64,000 nt of DNA from Escherichia phage EC_OE_11. Positions 4,034 to 13,823 of the stretch are shown here, piece by piece (position 1 is the first letter of the stretch; every line of letters begins with the position of its first letter). Made by a program: the position numbers and the translations under genes. Where the stretch lies: the sequence record OQ108497.1. The stretch is one strand, 5' to 3'. Under the pieces are notes generated by a model, which worked only from the letters and a program-made list of their open reading frames with translations, ran no database searches and was not told the origin of the DNA.

Positions 4034-4375
4034 ATGGAGCTAACAGAAGTATGGGATATCGCTAAAGAGGCGATTATCCCTCTTATTGGCGTAATCTGGG
4101 TGGTCTTCAAACAGAAGATAGATGATATGGCAAGTGATTTGGACAAAATGGAAGAGAAATACCGTGAACTAGAAAAGAAGTTGGTGTTTGTTGAATCCAC
4201 TTATGCTACCAAAGCAGAACTTGCTCAAATGCTTAACCAGATCAACTCTACATTAATGGCAAATAATACTGCCTTAGAACAGAAGATTGAAAAAATAATG
4301 GATTTAAAAAATGCTCCTGTTCAATTAATGCTAGAGGAGATTACAAAGCGCACACAAAGTAAGGACAAAAATTAA
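4034..4375 (+). CDS. hypothetical coiled-coil protein with N-terminal hydrophobic segment
   Basis: 113 aa; hydrophobic IIPLIGVIWVVF then charged coiled coil; stop overlaps next start. Confidence 0.25.
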   Translation: MELTEVWDIAKEAIIPLIGVIWVVFKQKIDDMASDLDKMEEKYRELEKKLVFVESTYATKAELAQMLNQINSTLMANNTALEQKIEKIMDLKNAPVQLMLEEITKRTQSKDKN

Positions 4376-6789
4376 TGGCGAATTTTCCAACATATCCTGC
4401 TACGACACTAGAACAAGGTGTTGATCTGGTTATATTCTCGTCTAACCAGATGCATGATGTTATTAATGGGGATGCTACAGCAACTGTAGAAACCGAAACA
4501 GGTTTAATACCTACACTGCGTAAAGCACTTGTTGATAACTTCTTCTTTAAGAGTCCTGTTGCTTGGTCAGCAGGATCAACTGAAACTGTATTTAACCAGT
4601 TACGTTATTTTGAAAATGGTATCTTGAGTGGGTACTATTATGCTCCATCTGCCACTACTGCGAACCCTGTACCTATGCAGGGTACACCTGTAGGAGACAG
4701 TAACTGGACTCTGTACGCTCTTAAAACTGAACAGTTAGCTTCAGATGTGTATCCTTGGTATTTTAAAGGTGCTACAGGATATGAAACAGAAATCAGTCCT
4801 CCTTATATCTTTGATAATGCTATTGTCACCATTAACGGTGTAATTCAGATTCAAGGTGAAGCATTTACTATCAAAGATAGTAAAATTATTCTGGCAGAAC
4901 CATTAGGTTTAGATCCGTCTACTGGTCTACCTAACAAATTGTTTGCTTTTATTGGTAAAACAACAGCCTCTACTTCTTACGTAGAGAAAAACCTTTTGTC
5001 ATCTACTACTGGTGCAGCAATGGTTGGTCTTCCATCTGGAGGCAACCTGTTACAAGCTCAATACTTTGTAACGCCTGAGCAGTTTGGTGCAATTGGCGAT
5101 GGAGTTACCGATGATACTCAAGCAATTTTAAAAACCATTACTTTCGCTAACACGAATAACATTCAAGTACGTGCAGATAAGAATTATAGATTCACAAGCT
5201 CAATTGCTATGTCTGGTATTCGTTGGTATGGTGGTACATTCACTGGTAACGGTGGAACAATGATTTCTACTGTATCCTGCTGGATTGAAAACGTTCGCTT
5301 TGAAAAATGTTATGTTAAGATGTTAGGTGGGGATTGCCGATTCTATCGTAATATCTTCTCCAATGCAACATCTACAGCAGCATTCTTAATGCAAGCAATG
5401 ACTAGTGAAGGTACGTTGGACTTCAGTTACAACGAAATGTATGGTTGTAAATATGCGATCCTGCAACAAGGTACTGGAGAAGTAATGACCTATGGGCGTT
5501 ACTCTAACAACTATATTCACGATATCAAAGGTGATGCTATTGAACTTAATGTAGTTCAAAGACACTACACGGAAGGTTTGATTATCGAGAATAACCACAT
5601 TGCTAACGTAGATGCTTCTGGACAAGGTGCAAACTGGGGTATTGGTATTGGTGTAGCAGGTAGTGGCCCATATGGTGTTGATGCTCCTGATTCACAATAT
5701 GTACGTAATTTCAGTATCATTGGGAATAGGGTTTACAATTGCCGTCAATGTTTACACGTTGAAATGGGTAAAAACTTCACAATACGTGATAATGAAGTTT
5801 ATCCTAACACAGCAGTTTCAACAGGTACAGGTTTAACTACTTGTGGTGTTGCATTATACGGATGCCAAGACTTTGAAGTTGATGGTTTAACTGGTTATCT
5901 GCTTAATGATCCGTCTGTTTCAACACGCATGGTCTTTATTGACTGGGGTGTTAACGGTGGAAGATATGCGGGGCCACCAATTAACTTTACAATTAAGAAT
6001 TTGGATATTCCAGAATCTTCGATTGAGATTGCAACGGCTGGATCAGACGACTGGGAAAACTCTACAATTGTTAGTAACATCAATTGTAATGATTTTAAAT
6101 GGCGTGGGCTACCATCTAGCTCTACTTTTAATAATATTCGTTGCCGTAGTATTGACTTTATTGGTCAACACGGAAGCGGAGAAGGAAGTGGTGGCGGTTT
6201 CTATGCTCGCAGCCAATTCACGTATATGAAGTGGGTAGGATGTACAGCACTTAGCGGAGATGAAACAACAGTTTCTTTTGCTAAAATCTACACGGATCGT
6301 TGCGATCAGGTTGGAAATAACTTTGGTGTTCCAACTGCTGTTGATGGTACAGGTCATCGTGGGCCAGTCTTAACCACTATTTCTGAACAATATTTTACAA
6401 CTTATGATGAATTCCCAGGTGGGCGTGAATTCCCTACTGGAACAGTTATTCATTGTGCAAGCGGTAAAAAACATGTTGTTACAGTAGGTGGTGCTTTCTT
6501 TAGTGACAACGAGAAAATAAAAGCAACTGTTACAGGTCAAACCTATCTACAGTCTAATGCTTTAAACTGGGCTAGTAATAGCTACGCTAAAGCGGCAGGT
6601 ACTAAGATTGTTATTCCAGGTGCAGGAGCAAATGGTGGCGATCTTGTGACAACTATAGCACGTGCAACATATGTGACAAATAGTTTGTACACAATAGATA
6701 TTGCAGATCCAATTGTAACACCTACAGCAGAGAATACAAAAATTAAAGCTCTGAATCCTGTTACTTTTGTCACTGTCAATAATGCTTAA
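4375..6789 (+). CDS. tailspike/tail fibre with pectate-lyase-like beta-helix (putative polysaccharide depolymerase)
   Basis: 804 aa; motif FGAIGDGVTDDTQAIL matches the N-terminal signature of the Pectate_lyase_3 family; repeated NxxG/beta-helix-like rungs (NYIHDIKGDAIEL, IENNHIANVDASGQG). Confidence 0.65.
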   Translation: MANFPTYPATTLEQGVDLVIFSSNQMHDVINGDATATVETETGLIPTLRKALVDNFFFKSPVAWSAGSTETVFNQLRYFENGILSGYYYAPSATTANPVPMQGTPVGDSNWTLYALKTEQLASDVYPWYFKGATGYETEISPPYIFDNAIVTINGVIQIQGEAFTIKDSKIILAEPLGLDPSTGLPNKLFAFIGKTTASTSYVEKNLLSSTTGAAMVGLPSGGNLLQAQYFVTPEQFGAIGDGVTDDTQAILKTITFANTNNIQVRADKNYRFTSSIAMSGIRWYGGTFTGNGGTMISTVSCWIENVRFEKCYVKMLGGDCRFYRNIFSNATSTAAFLMQAMTSEGTLDFSYNEMYGCKYAILQQGTGEVMTYGRYSNNYIHDIKGDAIELNVVQRHYTEGLIIENNHIANVDASGQGANWGIGIGVAGSGPYGVDAPDSQYVRNFSIIGNRVYNCRQCLHVEMGKNFTIRDNEVYPNTAVSTGTGLTTCGVALYGCQDFEVDGLTGYLLNDPSVSTRMVFIDWGVNGGRYAGPPINFTIKNLDIPESSIEIATAGSDDWENSTIVSNINCNDFKWRGLPSSSTFNNIRCRSIDFIGQHGSGEGSGGGFYARSQFTYMKWVGCTALSGDETTVSFAKIYTDRCDQVGNNFGVPTAVDGTGHRGPVLTTISEQYFTTYDEFPGGREFPTGTVIHCASGKKHVVTVGGAFFSDNEKIKATVTGQTYLQSNALNWASNSYAKAAGTKIVIPGAGANGGDLVTTIARATYVTNSLYTIDIADPIVTPTAENTKIKALNPVTFVTVNNA

Positions 6790-6792
6790 TTA

Positions 6793-6814
6793 AAAAGGGG
6801 CGAAAGCCCCTTTA
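6793..6814 (+). terminator. rho-independent terminator-like hairpin
   Basis: GGGGC-GAAA-GCCCC stem-loop followed by TTTATAAAA, directly after tailspike stop. Confidence 0.5.
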
Positions 6815-6830
6815 TAAAAGGAGTAGTAAA

Positions 6831-8792
6831 GTGATTTTAACACGTCCAAATAGTGCCATTGCAGACATGGTAGAGTCTCGCTATAGAAAGCGTAGAAGTT
6901 TTGCAAGTGGTTTTACCTTAAGAGATGCTCGTGAAGCATTGCTCTTTGAAGCTGACGGTAACTACTATCAGTGGAAAGGTTCTCTACCTAAAGTTGTACC
7001 TGCTAACTCTACTCCTACATCGACTGGAGGGATTTCAGATACAGCTTGGAAAAATGTGGGTAATGCAGATGACATTGCTCAAATAGAATCAGAATTAGAT
7101 GCTATTGAAGCTGAAATTGAAGATCTTAGAGAATCCATCCCAGAAGCTGGTAAATCAGCTTACCAGATTGCCGTAGACAATGGTTTCCAAGGTACTGAGA
7201 CAGAGTGGTTGGCTTCTTTAAAAGGTGATCCAGGTGCTCCATTAAAGCTATTAGGAACGCTGTCTAATACCAACCAATTACCTACAACTGGAAACAATGC
7301 AGGGGATGCATGGATTGTAGGCGAGAATATGTATGCTTGGGATGGTACTGCTTGGAGAAAAGTAAACTCACAGGGGCCAGAAGGTAAATCTGCTTATGAA
7401 GTATGGCTTGCAGCAGGAAACGAAGGTACAGAACTAGATTATCTTGCCTCAATTAAAGGTGATAAAGGGGAGCCTGGCCCAGAGGGGCCACAGGGTGTGC
7501 CAGGTAACAATGCTAATGGTTTTGATTACCAAGGTGCAGCTAATTCCGTTTCAGATCTTCCTTCTGCATCTCCTGGAAACACATCTCAAGCATGGAGTGT
7601 TGGTACATATCTATACGTGTCAAACGGTGTAGAATGGATCAATATGGGTGCTATAGTGGGGCCAAAAGGAGATAAAGGCGACAAAGGAGATAAGGGTAAC
7701 ACTGGTGATTCCGCTTATCAAGTCTGGTTAAATGCTGGTAACGTTGGTACTATTGACGAATATATTGCCTCTCTGAAAGGAGAAAAAGGTGATAAGGGAG
7801 ACAAGGGTGATCAAGGTGAGCAGGGTATACAAGGCTTGACGGGGCCAACTGGCGCAGGGTTGACCATTATTGATATTCTGACTAACACTTCTGAACTACC
7901 ACAAACTGGAGAAGATGGTGATGGTTATCTGATCAATAATGAACTTTGGGTCTGGTTGCAAGGAGCCACAGAGTGGACAAATGTTGGTCGTTTAGCTGGT
8001 ACTCCAATCACTGCAAAAGGACACGTTGCGTCTGCAAGTGCACTTCCTCCTACAGCCAATTACGGTGATGCTTATCTGACGGAAGATACAGGTCATCTTT
8101 ACATTTACACCTATGATGAACAAACTCAAACTGCTGAATATGTAGATATGGGTAGTTTGAAAGGCGATAAGGGTGAAAAAGGTGACGCTGGTACTAATGG
8201 TACAGACGGTGCAACTTGGATTGTTAAAACAACAGATCCAATCTCTAGTGATGGTAAACAAGGTGATTATGCCTTTAATATCTCCACTGGCGAGGTGTTC
8301 TTAAAAACATCTGCAACTGTCTGGACTTCTCAAGGTACACTACCTAGCATTACAGATGCACCTAGTGACGGTAAAATTTATGCTCGTAAAGATGGAGCAT
8401 GGGAAGAACTCACTAGTTCTGTAGATGGTCAAGATATAGTTCCAACAAAAGTAACAACTAATTTTATAGAGGTTACAGCATATACCAACAATTCTGTTAC
8501 AGGTGACTGGACACCTCCAGGAACACATAACATGAATGTGTTGAATCTTACTGGTAACTCTACTATAAAAGCATGGCCTGGTGTCGAAGATAGCACAAAA
8601 CCTAAACCATTCTCTGCAATAGTTTATCTTATCCAAGATGCCACTGGAGGTCGTACTGTTACTTTAGATCCATCTTATAAAGTAATTGGTTCTAGTGATA
8701 TTAATACAGATCCTAACGGAGTAACAATACTACAACTAACATATTGTGGTGTTGGCGATTACGTGGATGCTATTGTTGCTAAACGCACATAA
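6831..8792 (+). CDS. tail fibre protein with collagen-like G-X-Y repeats and phage fibre repeats
   Basis: 653 aa, GTG start after AAAGGAG; GPKGDKGDKGDKGNTGD and GEKGDKGDKGDQGEQGIQGLTGPTG collagen-like runs; three copies of KSAYxxxxxxGxxGTExxxLASLKG, the known phage tail-fibre repeat. Confidence 0.65.
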   Translation: MILTRPNSAIADMVESRYRKRRSFASGFTLRDAREALLFEADGNYYQWKGSLPKVVPANSTPTSTGGISDTAWKNVGNADDIAQIESELDAIEAEIEDLRESIPEAGKSAYQIAVDNGFQGTETEWLASLKGDPGAPLKLLGTLSNTNQLPTTGNNAGDAWIVGENMYAWDGTAWRKVNSQGPEGKSAYEVWLAAGNEGTELDYLASIKGDKGEPGPEGPQGVPGNNANGFDYQGAANSVSDLPSASPGNTSQAWSVGTYLYVSNGVEWINMGAIVGPKGDKGDKGDKGNTGDSAYQVWLNAGNVGTIDEYIASLKGEKGDKGDKGDQGEQGIQGLTGPTGAGLTIIDILTNTSELPQTGEDGDGYLINNELWVWLQGATEWTNVGRLAGTPITAKGHVASASALPPTANYGDAYLTEDTGHLYIYTYDEQTQTAEYVDMGSLKGDKGEKGDAGTNGTDGATWIVKTTDPISSDGKQGDYAFNISTGEVFLKTSATVWTSQGTLPSITDAPSDGKIYARKDGAWEELTSSVDGQDIVPTKVTTNFIEVTAYTNNSVTGDWTPPGTHNMNVLNLTGNSTIKAWPGVEDSTKPKPFSAIVYLIQDATGGRTVTLDPSYKVIGSSDINTDPNGVTILQLTYCGVGDYVDAIVAKRT

Positions 8793-8794
8793 TC

Positions 8795-8820
8795 AAAGCC
8801 CCTTCGGGGGCTTATTATTT
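8795..8820 (+). terminator. rho-independent terminator-like hairpin
   Basis: AGCCCC-TTCG-GGGGCT followed by TATTATTT. Confidence 0.5.
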
Positions 8821-8831
8821 AAGGAGATTAA

Positions 8832-11660
8832 ATGTATCCTATTCCTTTATTTATGTCAACAACATCAGCTTCAGGAGTAACAGCTACATCTATAACCACT
8901 GCCTCTATTGGTATTGCAATAGTTGGTAGTAAAAAACAACTGACATACACAGTTTCACCGGAAGATGGTGCGTTATTTGATATAGCTTTTTCATCTTCAG
9001 ATAATACCAAAATGGTTATAGATAATAGTGGTATGATGGAGTTTGTTGCTGAAGGTGGTTTTGATGCAATAATGACAGCTAAAAATAATTTAGGTGCTGT
9101 CTTAACTGATCAATCTGGTGGTTATGCTTCAGAATTAAGTGTGTACACTGAAAGTCTATCTGCTATGGATGTAGGCACTACTCAACAGTTGGTTGCTACA
9201 ATCAATCCAGAAGGTGCTAAAGACCTTCCAGATATGGTAATTACGTACACCACAACAGATCCAGAAGTAGCTACTGTAAGCCCTACAGGATTAATAACTG
9301 CTCTTAAAGATGGTAATTGCCGTATAGGTTGTACTGCAACGTATCAAGGAACAGTTGTGGCCTCTGATAGTTCTTATTTAGGTGTTAATGCTATTCCTGT
9401 TATTTCTAATGTAACAGCCGTGGCAAACAGCTATGGAGACGTTCGTGTTGCTTGGGATGTAGCTGATCCGCTAGATGGTGATACTTATACTGTAGAAGTG
9501 TTAGATTTAAGTAATAACAGTGTTCAGTGGACTACAACAACCACGAATACTCATGCTTACTTTGATATCTCTGACTCTATTCCTCTTTATGGGTTTGCTC
9601 CAACATACCTTAAAATTAGCGTTAAGAGCACCAAAGCAGCACCTGTTATCTTTAATAACTCAATAGCTACAGATGATTCGTTCATTAAAGAAGTTATTGT
9701 CTTTGCTGGACAAGATAACGTAAATGCGCACTTTACAGAACTATCTGGTGCAAATAAAGCAGCAATGAGTAGCACAACAGCCCGTAATGCATATGCTACG
9801 CAACGTGGTTTAGCAAATGCTGAAGTTCTTCCGTTAAATACAGCTTCTGGATCATCAGCAGCAGATAAATATGCTGACGATAAAGCTGGAACAGGTACAC
9901 CAGACAACTACTGGTATGATCTGGATAACACAGCAGATGGGCCATGCTTAACTAATTTTATCACTAAAGTCACACCTTATGCAAGTAAGGTTAAAGCAAT
10001 TATTTGGGGACAAGGTGAAAATGATGCTGTATCAGCATCTTCAACTGTTGCAGGTAGATACAGTAACACTACACGTTACCATGATGCTACAATAGCTATC
10101 TTTGATAAGATGCGTACAATAGTTCCTGCTTCTCAAGCAAAAATTGTTTGGCAGATCCTAGGACGTTCTTATTTATATGGTGTAGAAGTTAATGGTGTGG
10201 ATTGGCAGAAATACAGAAATGTACAAAGAGCCATCTCTACGGCACGTGATGATGTTATCATTGGTTCTTGGGTAGATGGTGCTGAACGTTACAGTGGCTA
10301 TGTTTATGAAGAAGGTATTGATGGTCGTATCCATTATGTTTCTTCTGTATACCAGACAGCAGCTACAAAACTTGCTAAATCAGCAGCAGACGGTACAGAC
10401 CTAACATCAACGTCACCTGTTTGGGTTGATATGGCTGTTCCAACTGGAGCAACAGCTACTTCCCAACCTAATCAAGATACAATTTTAGCATGGGATGCTC
10501 AAGGCTATAGTAAACACTACTTCCGTAATATTAACGTCTTAACAGCATCTGTATTAACTGAACAAACACTTAATACGAACAGCTATACGTTTACCTATGC
10601 AGATCAAGTAGCACAATATGGTTTTGCAGCAGGAACTACTATATTTGATGTTGCATATTATGACGAAGCAAATGATGTGTTATCTCCTTTAGTACGTTTT
10701 AATGTTAACGTTACAGCAGGAACCGAAGAAGATAAACCTGTCGTGATGGACTATGATTTGACGCAAGAAACTCTTCCATCAGATGTGCGCGTAAACAGGA
10801 GCAACCATTATGCTAGGGCTTCTGGAGATATCCTTGTACCGACAGAGGTTTCTGCTCCTGTAGCACCTTTAGAATATATTGGTACAACGCCACAAGGTAG
10901 ACGTGTTGTAGCAGCCAACCGTACATATATCTTTGTCAACAATAACTTGACAACAGCTTCCCCGTGGTTGAAGACGAACTTGACAGTTACAGCATCAACA
11001 ATCAACTCTCCGGTTGGAACTACAGCTAACACTTACAAGTTAACACCTTCTACAACTTCAGGACAACATATTTTATCAGCAGTGAATACAGCTTCTGATA
11101 TTACAGCAGGTAGGCAATGGGCTGCATCTGTATTCTTGAAGCCAGACGGGATCACTAAAGTGAAGCTCAAATTGACTTCAGGAGATGAGGTTAACGAAGG
11201 GACTTATGATCTTGAAGCTGGAACATTTACAGGCACAGATGCAAATATGATCGACATGGGGAATGGTTGGTATCGTGTAATCTTACATAAAGTAACGGTT
11301 GCTAAACAAGCCTCTATGACTTATGAGATTATAGCTTTGAATGCCAGTGGATCAGACACTTTTGCAGGAGATGGCACTGGAGGTCTTATTGCTTGGGTTC
11401 CACAACTTGAAATGGGCGATATGACAAACCCAGTTTGGGCGGGGACACCATTTGTTTGTACTTATGCACGAGATACAGATAGTGCTGCCACCTTCACTAT
11501 TCCTAAGAACGGACACACTGGCGTGGATATTTACCACACAGATGGAACTGTGCAAAGAGAGATTTTCACGGGCACAGCTACTACCTGGATGTTATCATTC
11601 AACGCCGCAAGTGCAGATTGGGGATCGAAATTCATCTCTGGTTTGAAATATTACGACTAA
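8832..11660 (+). CDS. tail fibre/tailspike protein with Ig-like (Big_2-like) and SGNH/esterase-like domains
   Basis: 942 aa; AAGGAG RBS; Big_2-like segment (VITYTTTDPEVATVSPTGLITALKDGNCRIGCTATYQG); central region with esterase-like motifs (VIVFAGQDNVNAHF ... IWGQGENDA). Confidence 0.45.
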   Translation: MYPIPLFMSTTSASGVTATSITTASIGIAIVGSKKQLTYTVSPEDGALFDIAFSSSDNTKMVIDNSGMMEFVAEGGFDAIMTAKNNLGAVLTDQSGGYASELSVYTESLSAMDVGTTQQLVATINPEGAKDLPDMVITYTTTDPEVATVSPTGLITALKDGNCRIGCTATYQGTVVASDSSYLGVNAIPVISNVTAVANSYGDVRVAWDVADPLDGDTYTVEVLDLSNNSVQWTTTTTNTHAYFDISDSIPLYGFAPTYLKISVKSTKAAPVIFNNSIATDDSFIKEVIVFAGQDNVNAHFTELSGANKAAMSSTTARNAYATQRGLANAEVLPLNTASGSSAADKYADDKAGTGTPDNYWYDLDNTADGPCLTNFITKVTPYASKVKAIIWGQGENDAVSASSTVAGRYSNTTRYHDATIAIFDKMRTIVPASQAKIVWQILGRSYLYGVEVNGVDWQKYRNVQRAISTARDDVIIGSWVDGAERYSGYVYEEGIDGRIHYVSSVYQTAATKLAKSAADGTDLTSTSPVWVDMAVPTGATATSQPNQDTILAWDAQGYSKHYFRNINVLTASVLTEQTLNTNSYTFTYADQVAQYGFAAGTTIFDVAYYDEANDVLSPLVRFNVNVTAGTEEDKPVVMDYDLTQETLPSDVRVNRSNHYARASGDILVPTEVSAPVAPLEYIGTTPQGRRVVAANRTYIFVNNNLTTASPWLKTNLTVTASTINSPVGTTANTYKLTPSTTSGQHILSAVNTASDITAGRQWAASVFLKPDGITKVKLKLTSGDEVNEGTYDLEAGTFTGTDANMIDMGNGWYRVILHKVTVAKQASMTYEIIALNASGSDTFAGDGTGGLIAWVPQLEMGDMTNPVWAGTPFVCTYARDTDSAATFTIPKNGHTGVDIYHTDGTVQREIFTGTATTWMLSFNAASADWGSKFISGLKYYD

Positions 11661-11663
11661 TAA

Positions 11664-11690
11664 AAAAGGAGCCATTAGGCTCCTTTTCTT
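11664..11690. terminator. bidirectional terminator hairpin between convergent genes
   Basis: AAAAGGAGCC-ATTA-GGCTCCTTTT, A-run and T-run on both sides; between plus gene stop 11660 and minus gene stop 11696. Confidence 0.6.
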
Positions 11691-11695
11691 TTATC

Positions 11696-12127
11696 TTAAT
11701 CAGTGAAAATTACGCTTACATCTTCTTTAGAAAAGAGTTTATGATCTTCACCTTTTGTCTCAAGAGTTTCATACAGGTTAAGAAGTTCTGAAACATCTTT
11801 CTCTACCAGTTTCTTCAATGTTGCAATTTTCTGTTTGCGATTCTTAATACGTTCAGCTACAACCTTACGTTGGTATCCGGCAGTACGATAACCGGAGAAA
11901 GTTACACCAGTGAGACTTGCAGTTACAGGATCGTAATGACGTTCAATCTGAAATTTATTAAAAGGTACAGCGTCATCACGAATAATCTTACCGCCATTAC
12001 TTACTTGACGAAGACCAGTAACTTGTTCCAGTCGTGCCATAGAAATCTTTGGAGACAGACCAGAGTCCAAGTTCATACCGTTGTTAATCAGTGCCTTCAG
12101 GGTGATTTTGCTGTTCAGTGTACTCAT
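11696..12127 (-). CDS. hypothetical protein co-transcribed with DNA methyltransferase
   Basis: 143 aa; start overlaps upstream MTase gene (alternative ATG about 12076); no recognisable motif. Confidence 0.35.
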   Translation of the reverse strand: MSTLNSKITLKALINNGMNLDSGLSPKISMARLEQVTGLRQVSNGGKIIRDDAVPFNKFQIERHYDPVTASLTGVTFSGYRTAGYQRKVVAERIKNRKQKIATLKKLVEKDVSELLNLYETLETKGEDHKLFSKEDVSVIFTD

Positions 12128-12815
12128 TTAGTCGTTCCTCCGCTTGCTTAAAAATATTTACATCGGCTTCACAGCCTAAGTATTCTCTACCTGTTAAAAG
12201 TGCCGCAACTTGTGTTGTTGCACTTCCAGAGAAGAAGTCTAAGACTACATCTCCTTCGTTGGTGTGTATATTAATAAGGTCACAAAACAAAGTCAAGTGT
12301 TTTTGTGTTGGATGAAAACGATCTGCTCCTTGATAGATAGGATACTCAAACACACCCTTATGGTAGGAAGCATTGAAGGTTGGCTTCGAACCTTTAACAC
12401 AAACAATAGCCATCTCTTTAGCGTTACTAAGGTAGTTAACACCACTGTTGATGGGTACAGGGTTGGTTTTAATCCATTCAATAGTACGGAACATACGAAA
12501 ACCAAGCGGTTCAAGGATTTCACGTAGTTCCTGGATCTTCCAGATATCATACCAAACTATGCAAGTACCACCTTTTCTAAGCACCCTATAGGCTTCTTTG
12601 AATACTTCTTTAAAGTAAGGAATATCTACAACATCCCAGTCACCAAAGTTGTAAGATACACGGAATCTATCCGTATCTTTTCCAGTAGGCTCTCCAGATT
12701 GAAAATTTGTGTCACGAGAAATAGCATATGGTGGGTCAGTAAGAATCAAATCTACACTGTTGCTTTCGAGGGTTTGCAGGTAGTTTAATGCGGTGTTGTT
12801 TACAAATTCGCTCAT
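12084..12815 (-). CDS. DNA methyltransferase (beta-class, N6-adenine or N4-cytosine)
   Basis: 243 aa; GAAGGAG RBS; catalytic DPPY motif (ILTDPPYAI) precedes AdoMet-binding FFSGSATT, the circularly permuted beta-class order. Confidence 0.85.
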   Translation of the reverse strand: MSEFVNNTALNYLQTLESNSVDLILTDPPYAISRDTNFQSGEPTGKDTDRFRVSYNFGDWDVVDIPYFKEVFKEAYRVLRKGGTCIVWYDIWKIQELREILEPLGFRMFRTIEWIKTNPVPINSGVNYLSNAKEMAIVCVKGSKPTFNASYHKGVFEYPIYQGADRFHPTQKHLTLFCDLINIHTNEGDVVLDFFSGSATTQVAALLTGREYLGCEADVNIFKQAEERLNEYTEQQNHPEGTD

Positions 12816-12830
12816 TATATCTCCTTCAAA

Positions 12831-12853
12831 GAAAAGGAGCCGTTAGGCTCCTT
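12831..12853 (-). terminator. terminator-like hairpin (near-identical copy of hairpin at 11664)
   Basis: GGAGCC-GTTA-GGCTCC with flanking A/T runs; lies between SSB-like stop and MTase start. Confidence 0.5.
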
Positions 12854-12875
12854 ATATTCACACAATATTTAATTA

Positions 12876-13823
12876 TTAGAAACAGTGCAGGAAGTTTCGA
12901 CCATATTGCAAACCAATAGGAGCAAATGGGATATCATCATCGAAATCTTGAACAACAGGTTCTGGTTCTTTCGGTGCTGGCTCTTTCTTCTCTACTTTCT
13001 TAGTTTCTTTCTTAACTTCTTGTACTGGGGTAGACATTCCACGGATAGCAGCAGCTACTTTATCAGACAAAGCAAGAACTTCACGAGCAGCTTCAATAAT
13101 CTCTTCTGCCGTTACAGTTTTACCTGTATGATCACGACAAGCATTAAGAATTGCGTGTCCAACTGAAGCACCAAGATCATAATCAGTCACGTCAACGCCA
13201 CGATCTTTAGCAATTTCAGCTTTCAGAGTAACAGTTGCAGATTGTACCACACCAGCCAAATCGAAAGCATCACCTTTCACACCAGCACGTAGAAGCTCCA
13301 GAGCGCCGTTTACAGCGTGTCCTGTTTCAATCCCTACGGTATCACGTTTTTTGTAGTTAGGCTTGCTACCGTCATTATTAGATGGCTTATTTCCACCTTT
13401 TGAAGAAGATTGTGCTTGCTGAACACCTTCTGTTGAAAGAATAGTGATTTTACCTTTAGAGGAATTGTAGTATGTTTTGCCATTCCATTCGGAAGGTTTA
13501 ACATCCATAGTTAGTTCTACACCTTTTTCAATAGTAACCCACTTATCACCATCTTTAACTTGCAGGTTTTCATGTTCTGGGTGCAGTTTAACTTCACCTA
13601 GACTAACCCAAACGCCTTTATCCTCAGCACCAGCACCTTTCTCTTTAATAAGCAGAGATGCTTTGTGAGTTGATTCAATTTTCTTATCTGGCTGACCTGC
13701 AACCTTAATATAAGAGACTTTCATTTCATCAAACTTATCTAGTTTGACATATTCGACAATACCTTCAGCCCAGAATGCTTCTTTTTTAGTACGGCGGTCG
13801 ATTTCAGAATTAATTACTGGCAT
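12876..13823 (-). CDS. putative ssDNA-binding protein with E. coli SSB-like acidic tail motif
   Basis: 315 aa; contains DFDDDIPF (the E. coli SSB C-terminal tip) but followed by 17 more residues; Gly/Ser/Asn-rich linker; N-terminal beta-rich region. Confidence 0.4.
   Translation of the reverse strand: MPVINSEIDRRTKKEAFWAEGIVEYVKLDKFDEMKVSYIKVAGQPDKKIESTHKASLLIKEKGAGAEDKGVWVSLGEVKLHPEHENLQVKDGDKWVTIEKGVELTMDVKPSEWNGKTYYNSSKGKITILSTEGVQQAQSSSKGGNKPSNNDGSKPNYKKRDTVGIETGHAVNGALELLRAGVKGDAFDLAGVVQSATVTLKAEIAKDRGVDVTDYDLGASVGHAILNACRDHTGKTVTAEEIIEAAREVLALSDKVAAAIRGMSTPVQEVKKETKKVEKKEPAPKEPEPVVQDFDDDIPFAPIGLQYGRNFLHCF

Follow-up and report, generated by a model that had tools for sequence, protein, structure and literature searches.

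Phages of the phi92 type carry several co-expressed spikes and fibres which are directed against different glycans (PMC11984140, PMC8594841, PMC13450770), and they finally use a short tail fibre on the core of the lipopolysaccharide (LPS) (PMC8594841). In the podovirus N4, the receptor-binding protein is gp65 (PMC13434306), a protein of 1382 amino acids and 10 domains (PDB 9LC0, 9YF4/5), which builds the non-contractile sheath as a partner of gp64 and is in contact with the tail plug. Here we report on three consecutive genes at positions 4375-11660 of a stretch of 64,000 nucleotides from Escherichia phage EC_OE_11 (record OQ108497.1). This whole stretch is called the window in the following and its numbering is used throughout. 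We suggest that the genes form the last part of a phi92-like receptor-binding-protein cluster and encode a colanidase tailspike, a non-enzymatic fibre and a glycan-binding adhesin, a reading to which we assign a probability of about 80%. The three genes are adjacent open reading frames:

4375..6789, plus strand: gene 1, orthologue of phi92 gp150, putative colanidase tailspike of 804 amino acids, ATG start, 98.4% amino acid identity over 804 amino acids
6831..8792, plus strand: gene 2, orthologue of phi92 gp151, collagen-like tail fibre of 653 amino acids, 98.5% identity, GTG start with AAGGAG ribosome-binding site
8832..11660, plus strand: gene 3, modular protein of 942 amino acids and probable adhesin, ATG start, intact counterpart of the fragmented phi92 gp152/gp153

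By megablast the phage is a phi92-like myophage of the genus Justusliebigvirus (Stephanstirmvirinae). The region 4375-11660 retrieved 91 phage records with Escherichia phage JohannJBalmer (Bas62) on top (100% coverage, 98.9% identity), whose record labels each of the three genes 'lateral tail fiber protein'. We also gathered the annotations of about 90 related phages. An earlier note on this DNA had described three consecutive large fibre/spike genes at these positions; the genes are real and all motifs quoted in it are present. All three proteins match tail families of the PHROG collection with E-values from 1e-269 down to 0, and together with the 98.9% identity to a GenBank phage this puts the observation far beyond chance. 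The gene order from gp145 to gp153 of the type phage phi92 is the same as in the window. Order and context are likewise shared with Bas60-62 and other Justusliebigvirus phages, and we propose for the three genes the function proposed for the phi92 apparatus (gp150, gp151, gp152/153), namely recognition of the host via multiple receptors. The cluster as such is already known: near-identical genomes are deposited, a crystal structure and a reported activity exist for the gene 1 orthologue, and the 'Swiss army knife' concept has appeared in the literature. The locus differs from phi92 in gene 3, which is an intact mosaic of 942 amino acids here and is broken in phi92.

Gene 1 is the best understood of the three. 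Its main segments are:

4375..4914, plus strand: N-terminal region, amino acids 1-180, candidate anchor with matches to phiTE and to PHROG N-termini
5083..5130, plus strand: FGAIGDGVTDDTQAIL motif at the start of the beta-helix, amino acids 237-252
6484..6750, plus strand: C-terminal TSP_Ig-like domain, amino acids 704-792, Pfam PF20745, E = 2.8e-13, above cutoff

From the FGAIGDGVTDDTQAIL signature the earlier note had derived a pectate-lyase-type beta-helix and, probably, a polysaccharide depolymerase, and this holds, with the refinement that the protein is expected to be a hydrolase and not a lyase. The Pfam family Pect-lyase_RHGA_epim (PF12708, Pectate_lyase_3) remains below its gathering threshold (22.5 bits versus 27, E = 1.1e-4), and the match is confined to amino acids 236-293, the stretch which holds FGAIGDGVTDDTQAIL and the FGAIGDG motif. 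Despite this score the beta-helix fold is established, because amino acids 180-804 match the structure of 'Bacteriophage Phi92 gp150' (PDB 6E0V) with E = 0 and 1412 bits. The protein further matches PHROG 6117, 'colanic acid degradation', with E = 3e-269, and amino acids 358-552 are homologous to WcaM from the colanic acid gene cluster (TIGR04004, E = 1e-28). For gp150, hydrolysis of colanic acid at the beta-1,4 Glc-Fuc bond has been reported in a biochemical study (Xu et al. 2025, as cited in PMC13450770), and we infer that gene 1 encodes a colanic-acid hydrolase with a pectate-lyase-like fold, taking the activity from the 98% identity to gp150. The N-terminus resembles a different set of proteins. 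Amino acids 12-126 are similar to the N-terminus of the long tail fibre of phiTE (PDB 9CUY chain g, E = 9.5e-18), and the tail-fibre N-termini of PHROG 4549 and 2710 are matched as well. Because the phiTE segment has been modelled inside the baseplate, the similarity suggests that the N-terminus of gene 1 is a baseplate anchor.

Gene 2 is conserved at 95-99% within Justusliebigvirus and at about 60% identity in Phapecoctavirus, and PHROG 15437 covers it over its full length. It is composed of the following parts:

6861..7061, plus strand: Tail_spike_N domain (TSP1/gp66-type), amino acids 11-77, Pfam PF18668, E = 3.3e-21, 75.6 bits versus 25
7146..8216, plus strand: shaft, amino acids 106-462, in which SAY-type repeats, G-X-Y runs and beta-rich 'GDAW'-type segments alternate
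8334..8417, plus strand: foldon-like motif APSDGKIYARKDGAWEEL, amino acids 502-529, Pfam Fibritin_C E = 1.1e-3, 19.5 bits and thus just below the cutoff of 21
8418..8789, plus strand: C-terminal knob, amino acids 530-653, match to the C-terminus of PHROG 4549 with E = 6e-39, presumed receptor-binding tip

The Tail_spike_N domain is also found in the structures of CBA120 TSP1/3/4 and of G7C gp63.1. Four G-X-Y runs of 6-9 triplets each (amino acids 210-227, 277-294, 317-343 and 445-462) lie in the shaft, and the Pfam family Collagen (PF01391) scores above its gathering threshold (E = 1e-7, 32 bits versus 27.2). A repeat of about 27 amino acids, 'SAY[QE][IV]...L.GxKG', is present in three copies which start at amino acids 109, 187 and 294. 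The collagen-like fibre with three repeats which had been described for this gene is therefore confirmed, except that the repeats are of the SAY type and do not belong to the classical fibre family named in the earlier note: Phage_fiber_2 gave no match to gene 2 even at E <= 10. The APSDGKIYARKDGAWEEL stretch is close to the C-terminal trimerisation hairpin of T4 fibritin and precedes the knob. The rV5 tail fibre has a C-terminus with 48% identity to amino acids 557-652, and a knob of about 120 amino acids is common to this protein and rV5-type fibres. No enzyme family was detected in gene 2 in Pfam, NCBIfam or the PHROGs.

Gene 3 deserves the closest look. Its domains and motifs are:

8898..9401, plus strand: tandem immunoglobulin (Ig)-like domains, amino acids ~23-190, with Big_2 at amino acids 112-170
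9408..10718, plus strand: N4-gp65-type cassette, amino acids 193-629, consisting of a beta-sandwich, a SASA/CE6-type SGNH domain (amino acids ~287-522) and a second beta-sandwich
9708..9719, plus strand: block I 'GQDN', amino acids 293-296, with Asp295 at the position of the SGNH nucleophile Ser
10008..10028, plus strand: block III 'GQGENDA', amino acids 393-399, which aligns with the corresponding block of the SASA-family esterase 2APJ
10920..11426, plus strand: C-terminal 'GTA head-spike fibre' jelly-roll, amino acids 697-865, NCBIfam NF048003, E = 5.9e-20, 72.6 bits versus 36

Both the Big_2-like Ig domain and the SGNH fold of the SASA/DUF303 type which the earlier note had expected in gene 3 are present. 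Pfam Big_2 (PF02368) matches with E = 7e-14 and 52 bits, above the gathering threshold of 22.8, and PHROG 215, 885 and 28902 match the Ig-like region. The SGNH domain has a three-layer alpha/beta/alpha fold which is nearest to structures of the SASA family. The Pfam SASA profile itself stays below its gathering threshold (15.0 bits versus 24.8, E = 0.019) and matches the block III region (GQGENDA) only, and for this reason Pfam alone could not settle the question of an esterase. Among the profile families proposed for the three genes, Collagen and Big_2 are thus above cutoff, Pectate_lyase_3 and SASA below it, and Phage_fiber_2 is unmatched.

The tip of the protein is a predicted lectin-like jelly-roll. 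Amino acids 674-886 match Rcc01080 of the Rhodobacter capsulatus gene transfer agent (GTA; PDB 6TB9) with E = 2e-13. The AlphaFold2 models of gene 3 were calculated as monomers; for amino acids 630-942 the model is confident (predicted local distance difference test, pLDDT, >80) for the core at about amino acids 705-865 only, and the linker of amino acids 630-700 and the last ~80 residues are low. With the predicted core, Foldseek retrieved the tail fibres of Pa193 and E217 and the carbohydrate-binding families CBM61/70/4/27/29. The modelled tip accordingly appears to share the jelly-roll of Rcc01080 and of the CBM lectins, but whereas Rcc01080 sits on a capsid, the tip of gene 3 stands at the C-terminus of a protein from the tail module.

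The central question is whether the SGNH domain is an enzyme. The earlier note had considered gene 3 a possible O-antigen or capsule deacetylase. As in the SASA/CE6 esterases (1ZMB, At4g34215 2APJ, NanS 3PT5) and in the SGNH fibres of phages (G7C gp63.1), the QGE-N-D element of block III, which contains the G-x-N-D motif, and the His of block V (RIHY, His501) are present. In contrast to these enzymes, the catalytic Ser of block I (GQSN or GDS) is replaced by Asp in GQDN, and the canonical Asp of the DxxH motif is not evident in the gene 3 subfamily. In the model, Asp295 is found where strand 95-101 passes into helix 103-109, the site of the SGNH nucleophile as judged from secondary-structure positions only.

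The replacement is a property of a whole clade. An exhaustive HMMER search with amino acids 193-629 returned 77 representatives among 1.84 billion proteins; the exhaustive search was needed, as a word-indexed search with the cassette found 6 proteins. We aligned 68 family domains to the gene 3 query. The nucleophile position is occupied by Ser in 46 of these, typically within GQSN, and the Ser-bearing domains usually also have W.QGE.DA in block III and (I/V)HY in block V. Most homologues of the cassette carry the full GQSN / QGExD / HY signature of SASA/CE6. Asp is found in all seven members of the clade of gene 3, as G[QG]DN. Besides gene 3 the clade includes a representative with 98% identity to it (P0007), the orthologue of ECGD1, the fragment of phi92, and Avunavirus Av-05 with its relatives (P0001-P0005), which have the motif GGDN and are about 41-53% identical to gene 3. 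Throughout the clade, Asp295, Asn296, His300 and the residues of block III do not vary, and the His of block V is changed to Gln in two members. Compared with ECGD1, the SGNH-like domain has a ratio of non-synonymous to synonymous divergence (dN/dS) of 0.058, with 15 synonymous and 3 non-synonymous differences, and is hence maintained. Degenerate motifs also occur elsewhere in the cassette family, including the second N4 gp65 domain (GINQFGG, GPGETTGI), and repeated loss of catalysis thus seems to be a pattern of the family.

Since the Ser of block I is replaced throughout the clade and the His of block V is lost in two members, a conventional deacetylase activity of gene 3 is unlikely. We infer that the domain goes back to an esterase, no longer performs conventional catalysis and is kept as a glycan-binding module. 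Such a function has a precedent: the CE2 esterases (CtCE2 2WAO; 2W9X), which are among the structural matches, have an SGNH cleft which doubles as a glycan-binding site according to the title of the 2W9X entry. The CE2 enzymes retain the Ser-His dyad, whereas the Ser is absent from gene 3, for which binding is the function that we propose.

It could be argued that gene 3 is nevertheless an active carbohydrate esterase in which Asp295 takes the part of nucleophile or general base, assisted by His501 and the Asn/Asp of block III, and which deacetylates O-antigen, capsule or exopolysaccharide like the SGNH fibres of G7C-type phages. The SASA/CE6 fold, the retention of the block III motif and the block V His in the window protein and the motifs of most family members, which look catalytically competent (GQSN / QGE.D / HY), agree with this, as do the constraint on the pocket, with three invariant residues in a clade whose identity is only 48-53% and the low dN/dS, and the label 'tail carbohydrate esterase' which an annotation pipeline has given to two relatives. 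Yet not a single clade member has the nucleophile Ser, the Gln of block V in two of them is hard to square with a conserved mechanism, and no SGNH hydrolase which uses Asp as its nucleophile is known to us, although no systematic search for one was made. With the degenerate motifs in other branches of the family and the Pfam SASA score below threshold added to this, we consider an active esterase quite improbable. The missing catalytic Ser is overlooked where pipelines, or a reading of the motifs, give gene 3 the label 'carbohydrate esterase' or 'deacetylase', and the Ser-to-Asp cassette argues against such annotations. The claim of several receptor-modifying activities in this tail module is likewise overstated, as enzymatic activity is demonstrated or well founded for one of the three proteins.

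The closest structural relative of the entire cassette is N4 gp65, the top match of Foldseek (TMq 0.82, E = 1e-32). The relationship is also visible at the level of sequence, as direct BLASTP gives E-values of 4e-12 and 5e-11, and a profile of the cassette family matches gp65 with E = 6e-151. Gene 3 therefore contains the three-domain cassette of the N4 gp65 type on both sequence and structural homology, the matching part of gp65 being amino acids 426-1077. Block I is non-canonical in both proteins. Unlike gp65, gene 3 belongs to a myovirus, begins with Ig-like domains and ends in a different C-terminal tip. As a myovirus protein it would not be expected to form a non-contractile sheath with a gp64 partner.

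A link between N4 and phi92-like phages has been described before. The gp142-type fibre shares the deacetylase domain of gp64 and a 'GMSHY' segment of gp65, and targeting of the NGR glycan is attributed to this fibre (10.64898/2026.04.02.716166; PMC8669472). The gp142 orthologue of Bas62, bas62_0026 (Bas62 positions 5641-7716, upstream of the window), matches gp64 amino acids 107-367 and gp65 amino acids 356-416, which include 'GMSHY'. The gp65-like cassette of gene 3 is a second and longer link to N4, of which we found no mention in the literature examined. Parts of the N4 sheath pair gp64/gp65 are thus spread over two Justusliebigvirus proteins, bas62_0026 and gene 3. We also considered gene 3 as an NGR-binding protein and mostly rejected this, as the literature assigns NGR to the gp142-type fibre and 'GMSHY' is absent from gene 3. 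In tblastn the NGR-dependent Vequintavirus phages match only the Ig region of gene 3; because of this and because the phi92 copy is broken, the cassette is unlikely to be essential for the use of NGR. A bolder idea is that the phi92-like myoviruses have in gene 3 a second part of the host-recognition machinery of N4 which has escaped notice, a Ser-to-Asp lectin or an Asp esterase of a new type which would help to recognise the NGR glycan or NfrA, in a module exchanged between podoviruses and myoviruses. We regard this as very unlikely.

The architecture of gene 3 varies among its relatives. Four forms were found: the form of 942 amino acids in this window, Bas62 and Bas61; a form of 628-647 amino acids which ends after the second beta-sandwich (ECGD1, Av-05); a form which has no SGNH cassette and in which the lectin-like tip directly follows the Ig domains (phAPEC8 gp086); and the fragmented form of phi92. 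The gene of the window is a mosaic, as amino acids 1-628 are of the ECGD1 type (94% identity) and amino acids 637-942 of the phAPEC8 gp086 type (92% identity). A recombination junction can be located at window positions 10434-10740 (amino acids 535-637), because the synonymous divergence from ECGD1 jumps to 1.3 over amino acids 535-628, compared with ~0.09 in the neighbouring SGNH-like domain. The 3′ end of the locus is variable across the megablast matches. The tip is exchanged between phages, as is usual where a tip determines specificity. In phi92 (NC_023693), positions 11321-12983 correspond to window positions 8832-10718, and the orthologue is spread over three frames, of which two are annotated (gp152 and gp153) and one is not. 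Amino acids 199-272 are deleted in it, and the C-terminal lectin-like domain is absent. The breakage is either a real pseudogene of the laboratory strain or due to sequencing errors.

Several of these features would also be compatible with a humbler role, in which the gene 3 product, instead of being a fibre or spike of the baseplate, decorates the tail as an accessory, Ig-rich protein in the manner of Ig-tagged major tail proteins or Hoc-like adhesins, and is dispensable, with weak, non-specific adherence to glycans. The N-terminal Ig domains of gene 3 have matches among PHROGs with the labels 'major tail protein' and 'structural protein with Ig domain' and are 42-48% identical to annotated major tail/Ig-domain proteins of ~53-kb Salmonella and E. 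coli myophages, and phi92 gp152 is annotated 'lambda protein V like fold'. The phi92 copy is fragmented, no trimerisation element was detected in gene 3, and its nearest structural relative N4 gp65 is a sheath subunit along the tail and not a trimeric fibre. Against this, gene 3 ends a receptor-binding-protein cluster directly 3′ of two fibre/spike genes, its CBM-like tip is swapped between phages as for a specificity determinant, the intact copies are under strong purifying selection, and N4 gp65 is itself the N4 receptor-binding protein (PMC13434306). On balance a mere decoration seems doubtful to us, and a glycan-binding adhesin remains our preferred reading of gene 3.

We suggest that the three proteins act as follows. 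A trimer of gene 1 would be fixed to the baseplate by its N-terminal anchor, and its beta-helix would hydrolyse colanic acid so that the virion could tunnel through this common enterobacterial slime. The gene 2 product might be a non-enzymatic trimer in which Tail_spike_N is followed by the collagen/SAY-repeat shaft, the foldon-like clamp and the distal knob, and which could bind a ligand on the cell surface. Gene 3 would constitute a beads-on-a-string adhesin of two Ig-like domains, the N4-gp65-type cassette and the lectin-like jelly-roll tip, whose cassette without the catalytic Ser could serve glycan binding instead of deacetylation. The three products would be displayed together with the orthologues of phi92 gp141-143, spikes whose genes lie upstream of the window, as a multivalent 'Swiss army knife'. 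Spikes and fibres could then make alternative first contacts on different hosts, followed by irreversible binding of the short tail fibre to the LPS core. The multi-host adsorption via several receptor-directed modules which the earlier note had put forward is in line with the published model for phi92-like phages (PMC11984140, PMC8594841, PMC13450770).

Colanic acid is an outer slime layer through which a phage must pass on its way to deeper receptors. One could therefore imagine that the three proteins are not alternative keys but act in sequence on one host, with colanic acid stripped first, the fibre binding next and the adhesin last. That gp150 degrades colanic acid (as cited in PMC13450770) and that all phi92-like phages end on the LPS core via the short tail fibre (PMC8594841) would fit such an order of events. 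It is less easily reconciled with infection of K-12 via the NGR glycan, which is attributed to the gp142-type fibre encoded outside the region (10.64898/2026.04.02.716166; PMC8669472), with the endosialidase gp143, which is needed on matching capsule types only (PMC13450770), and with phi92, which is infectious without an intact gene 3. We consider a strictly sequential action unlikely and favour alternative first contacts.

Some points weigh against our proposal of a tailspike, a fibre and a glycan-binding adhesin. Asp can serve as nucleophile in other hydrolase superfamilies, and for this reason the loss of the Ser does not prove the loss of catalysis; the invariant Asp295, Asn296 and block III residues suit a binding pocket or an altered active site alike. 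The gene 3 orthologue is split in phi92 and therefore dispensable at least for that laboratory strain, so gene 3 may contribute little. A place in the virion is presumed for the gene 2 and gene 3 products, and in the 2026 cryo-electron microscopy study of phi92, gp151 was among the candidate fibres but could not be placed in density, and neither gp150 nor gp151 could be fitted into the density of fibre II (PMC13450770). Orthologues of the three genes are not dealt with in the proteomics paper on rV5 or in the genus paper on the Stephanstirmvirinae.

The surroundings of the three genes are those of a tail module. Five genes on the same strand precede them, coding for a Baseplate_J wedge protein, a DUF2612 baseplate protein, a short tail fibre of 327 amino acids, a Caudo_TAP chaperone and a small open reading frame of 113 amino acids. 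On the 3′ side of gene 3, a hypothetical protein, a Dam-like methylase and a DNA polymerase are encoded on the opposite strand, and gene 3 is hence the final gene of the structural operon. The features outside the three genes are:

4034..4375, plus strand: small upstream open reading frame, orthologue of phi92 gp149, 113 amino acids, with a coiled coil behind a hydrophobic helix at the N-terminus; the stop codon and the gene 1 start overlap
6793..6815, plus strand: GC-rich hairpin in the gap between genes 1 and 2, -14.5 kcal/mol, z = -3.5
8796..8813, plus strand: terminator-like hairpin in the gap between genes 2 and 3
11664..11687, no strand assigned: terminator-like hairpin between gene 3 and the convergent minus-strand genes, -15.4 kcal/mol, z = -3.8, end of the structural operon

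The gp149-like protein is labelled 'lipoprotein' in several related records. We rejected this label, as the protein is without Cys and without a lipobox. A stable GC-rich hairpin (-13 to -15 kcal/mol) is found 3′ of each of the three genes, and these hairpins may set differing expression levels of the three proteins. A promoter scan gave 21 sites compared with 22 +/- 5.7 in shuffled sequence and thus no excess. The GC skew changes its sign sharply near 48 kb of the window (from about -0.15/-0.23 to +0.21). It switches again near 12 kb, where gene 3 and the convergent genes meet. Both switches probably reflect a change in the direction of transcription between modules.

Three GenBank records, MG065639, MG065656 and MG065672, are named 'Campylobacter phage A150/C3/A141' with C. 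jejuni as stated host. A150 and C3 have ~97% DNA identity to this E. coli Justusliebigvirus locus. For A141 the match is limited to the C-terminal ~96 amino acids of gene 2 (48.5% amino acid identity), similar to rV5-type phages. Probably the hosts are mislabelled or the samples were contaminated.

In summary, what remains of particular interest in an otherwise known cluster is the conserved Ser-to-Asp 'esterase' cassette which gene 3 has in common with N4 gp65 and which offers a testable lead. The host ranges of phi92-like phages belong to the broadest among phages of E. coli and Salmonella, and therapy and biocontrol are candidate applications. To engineer the host range, the roles in the receptor-binding cluster have to be known protein by protein.

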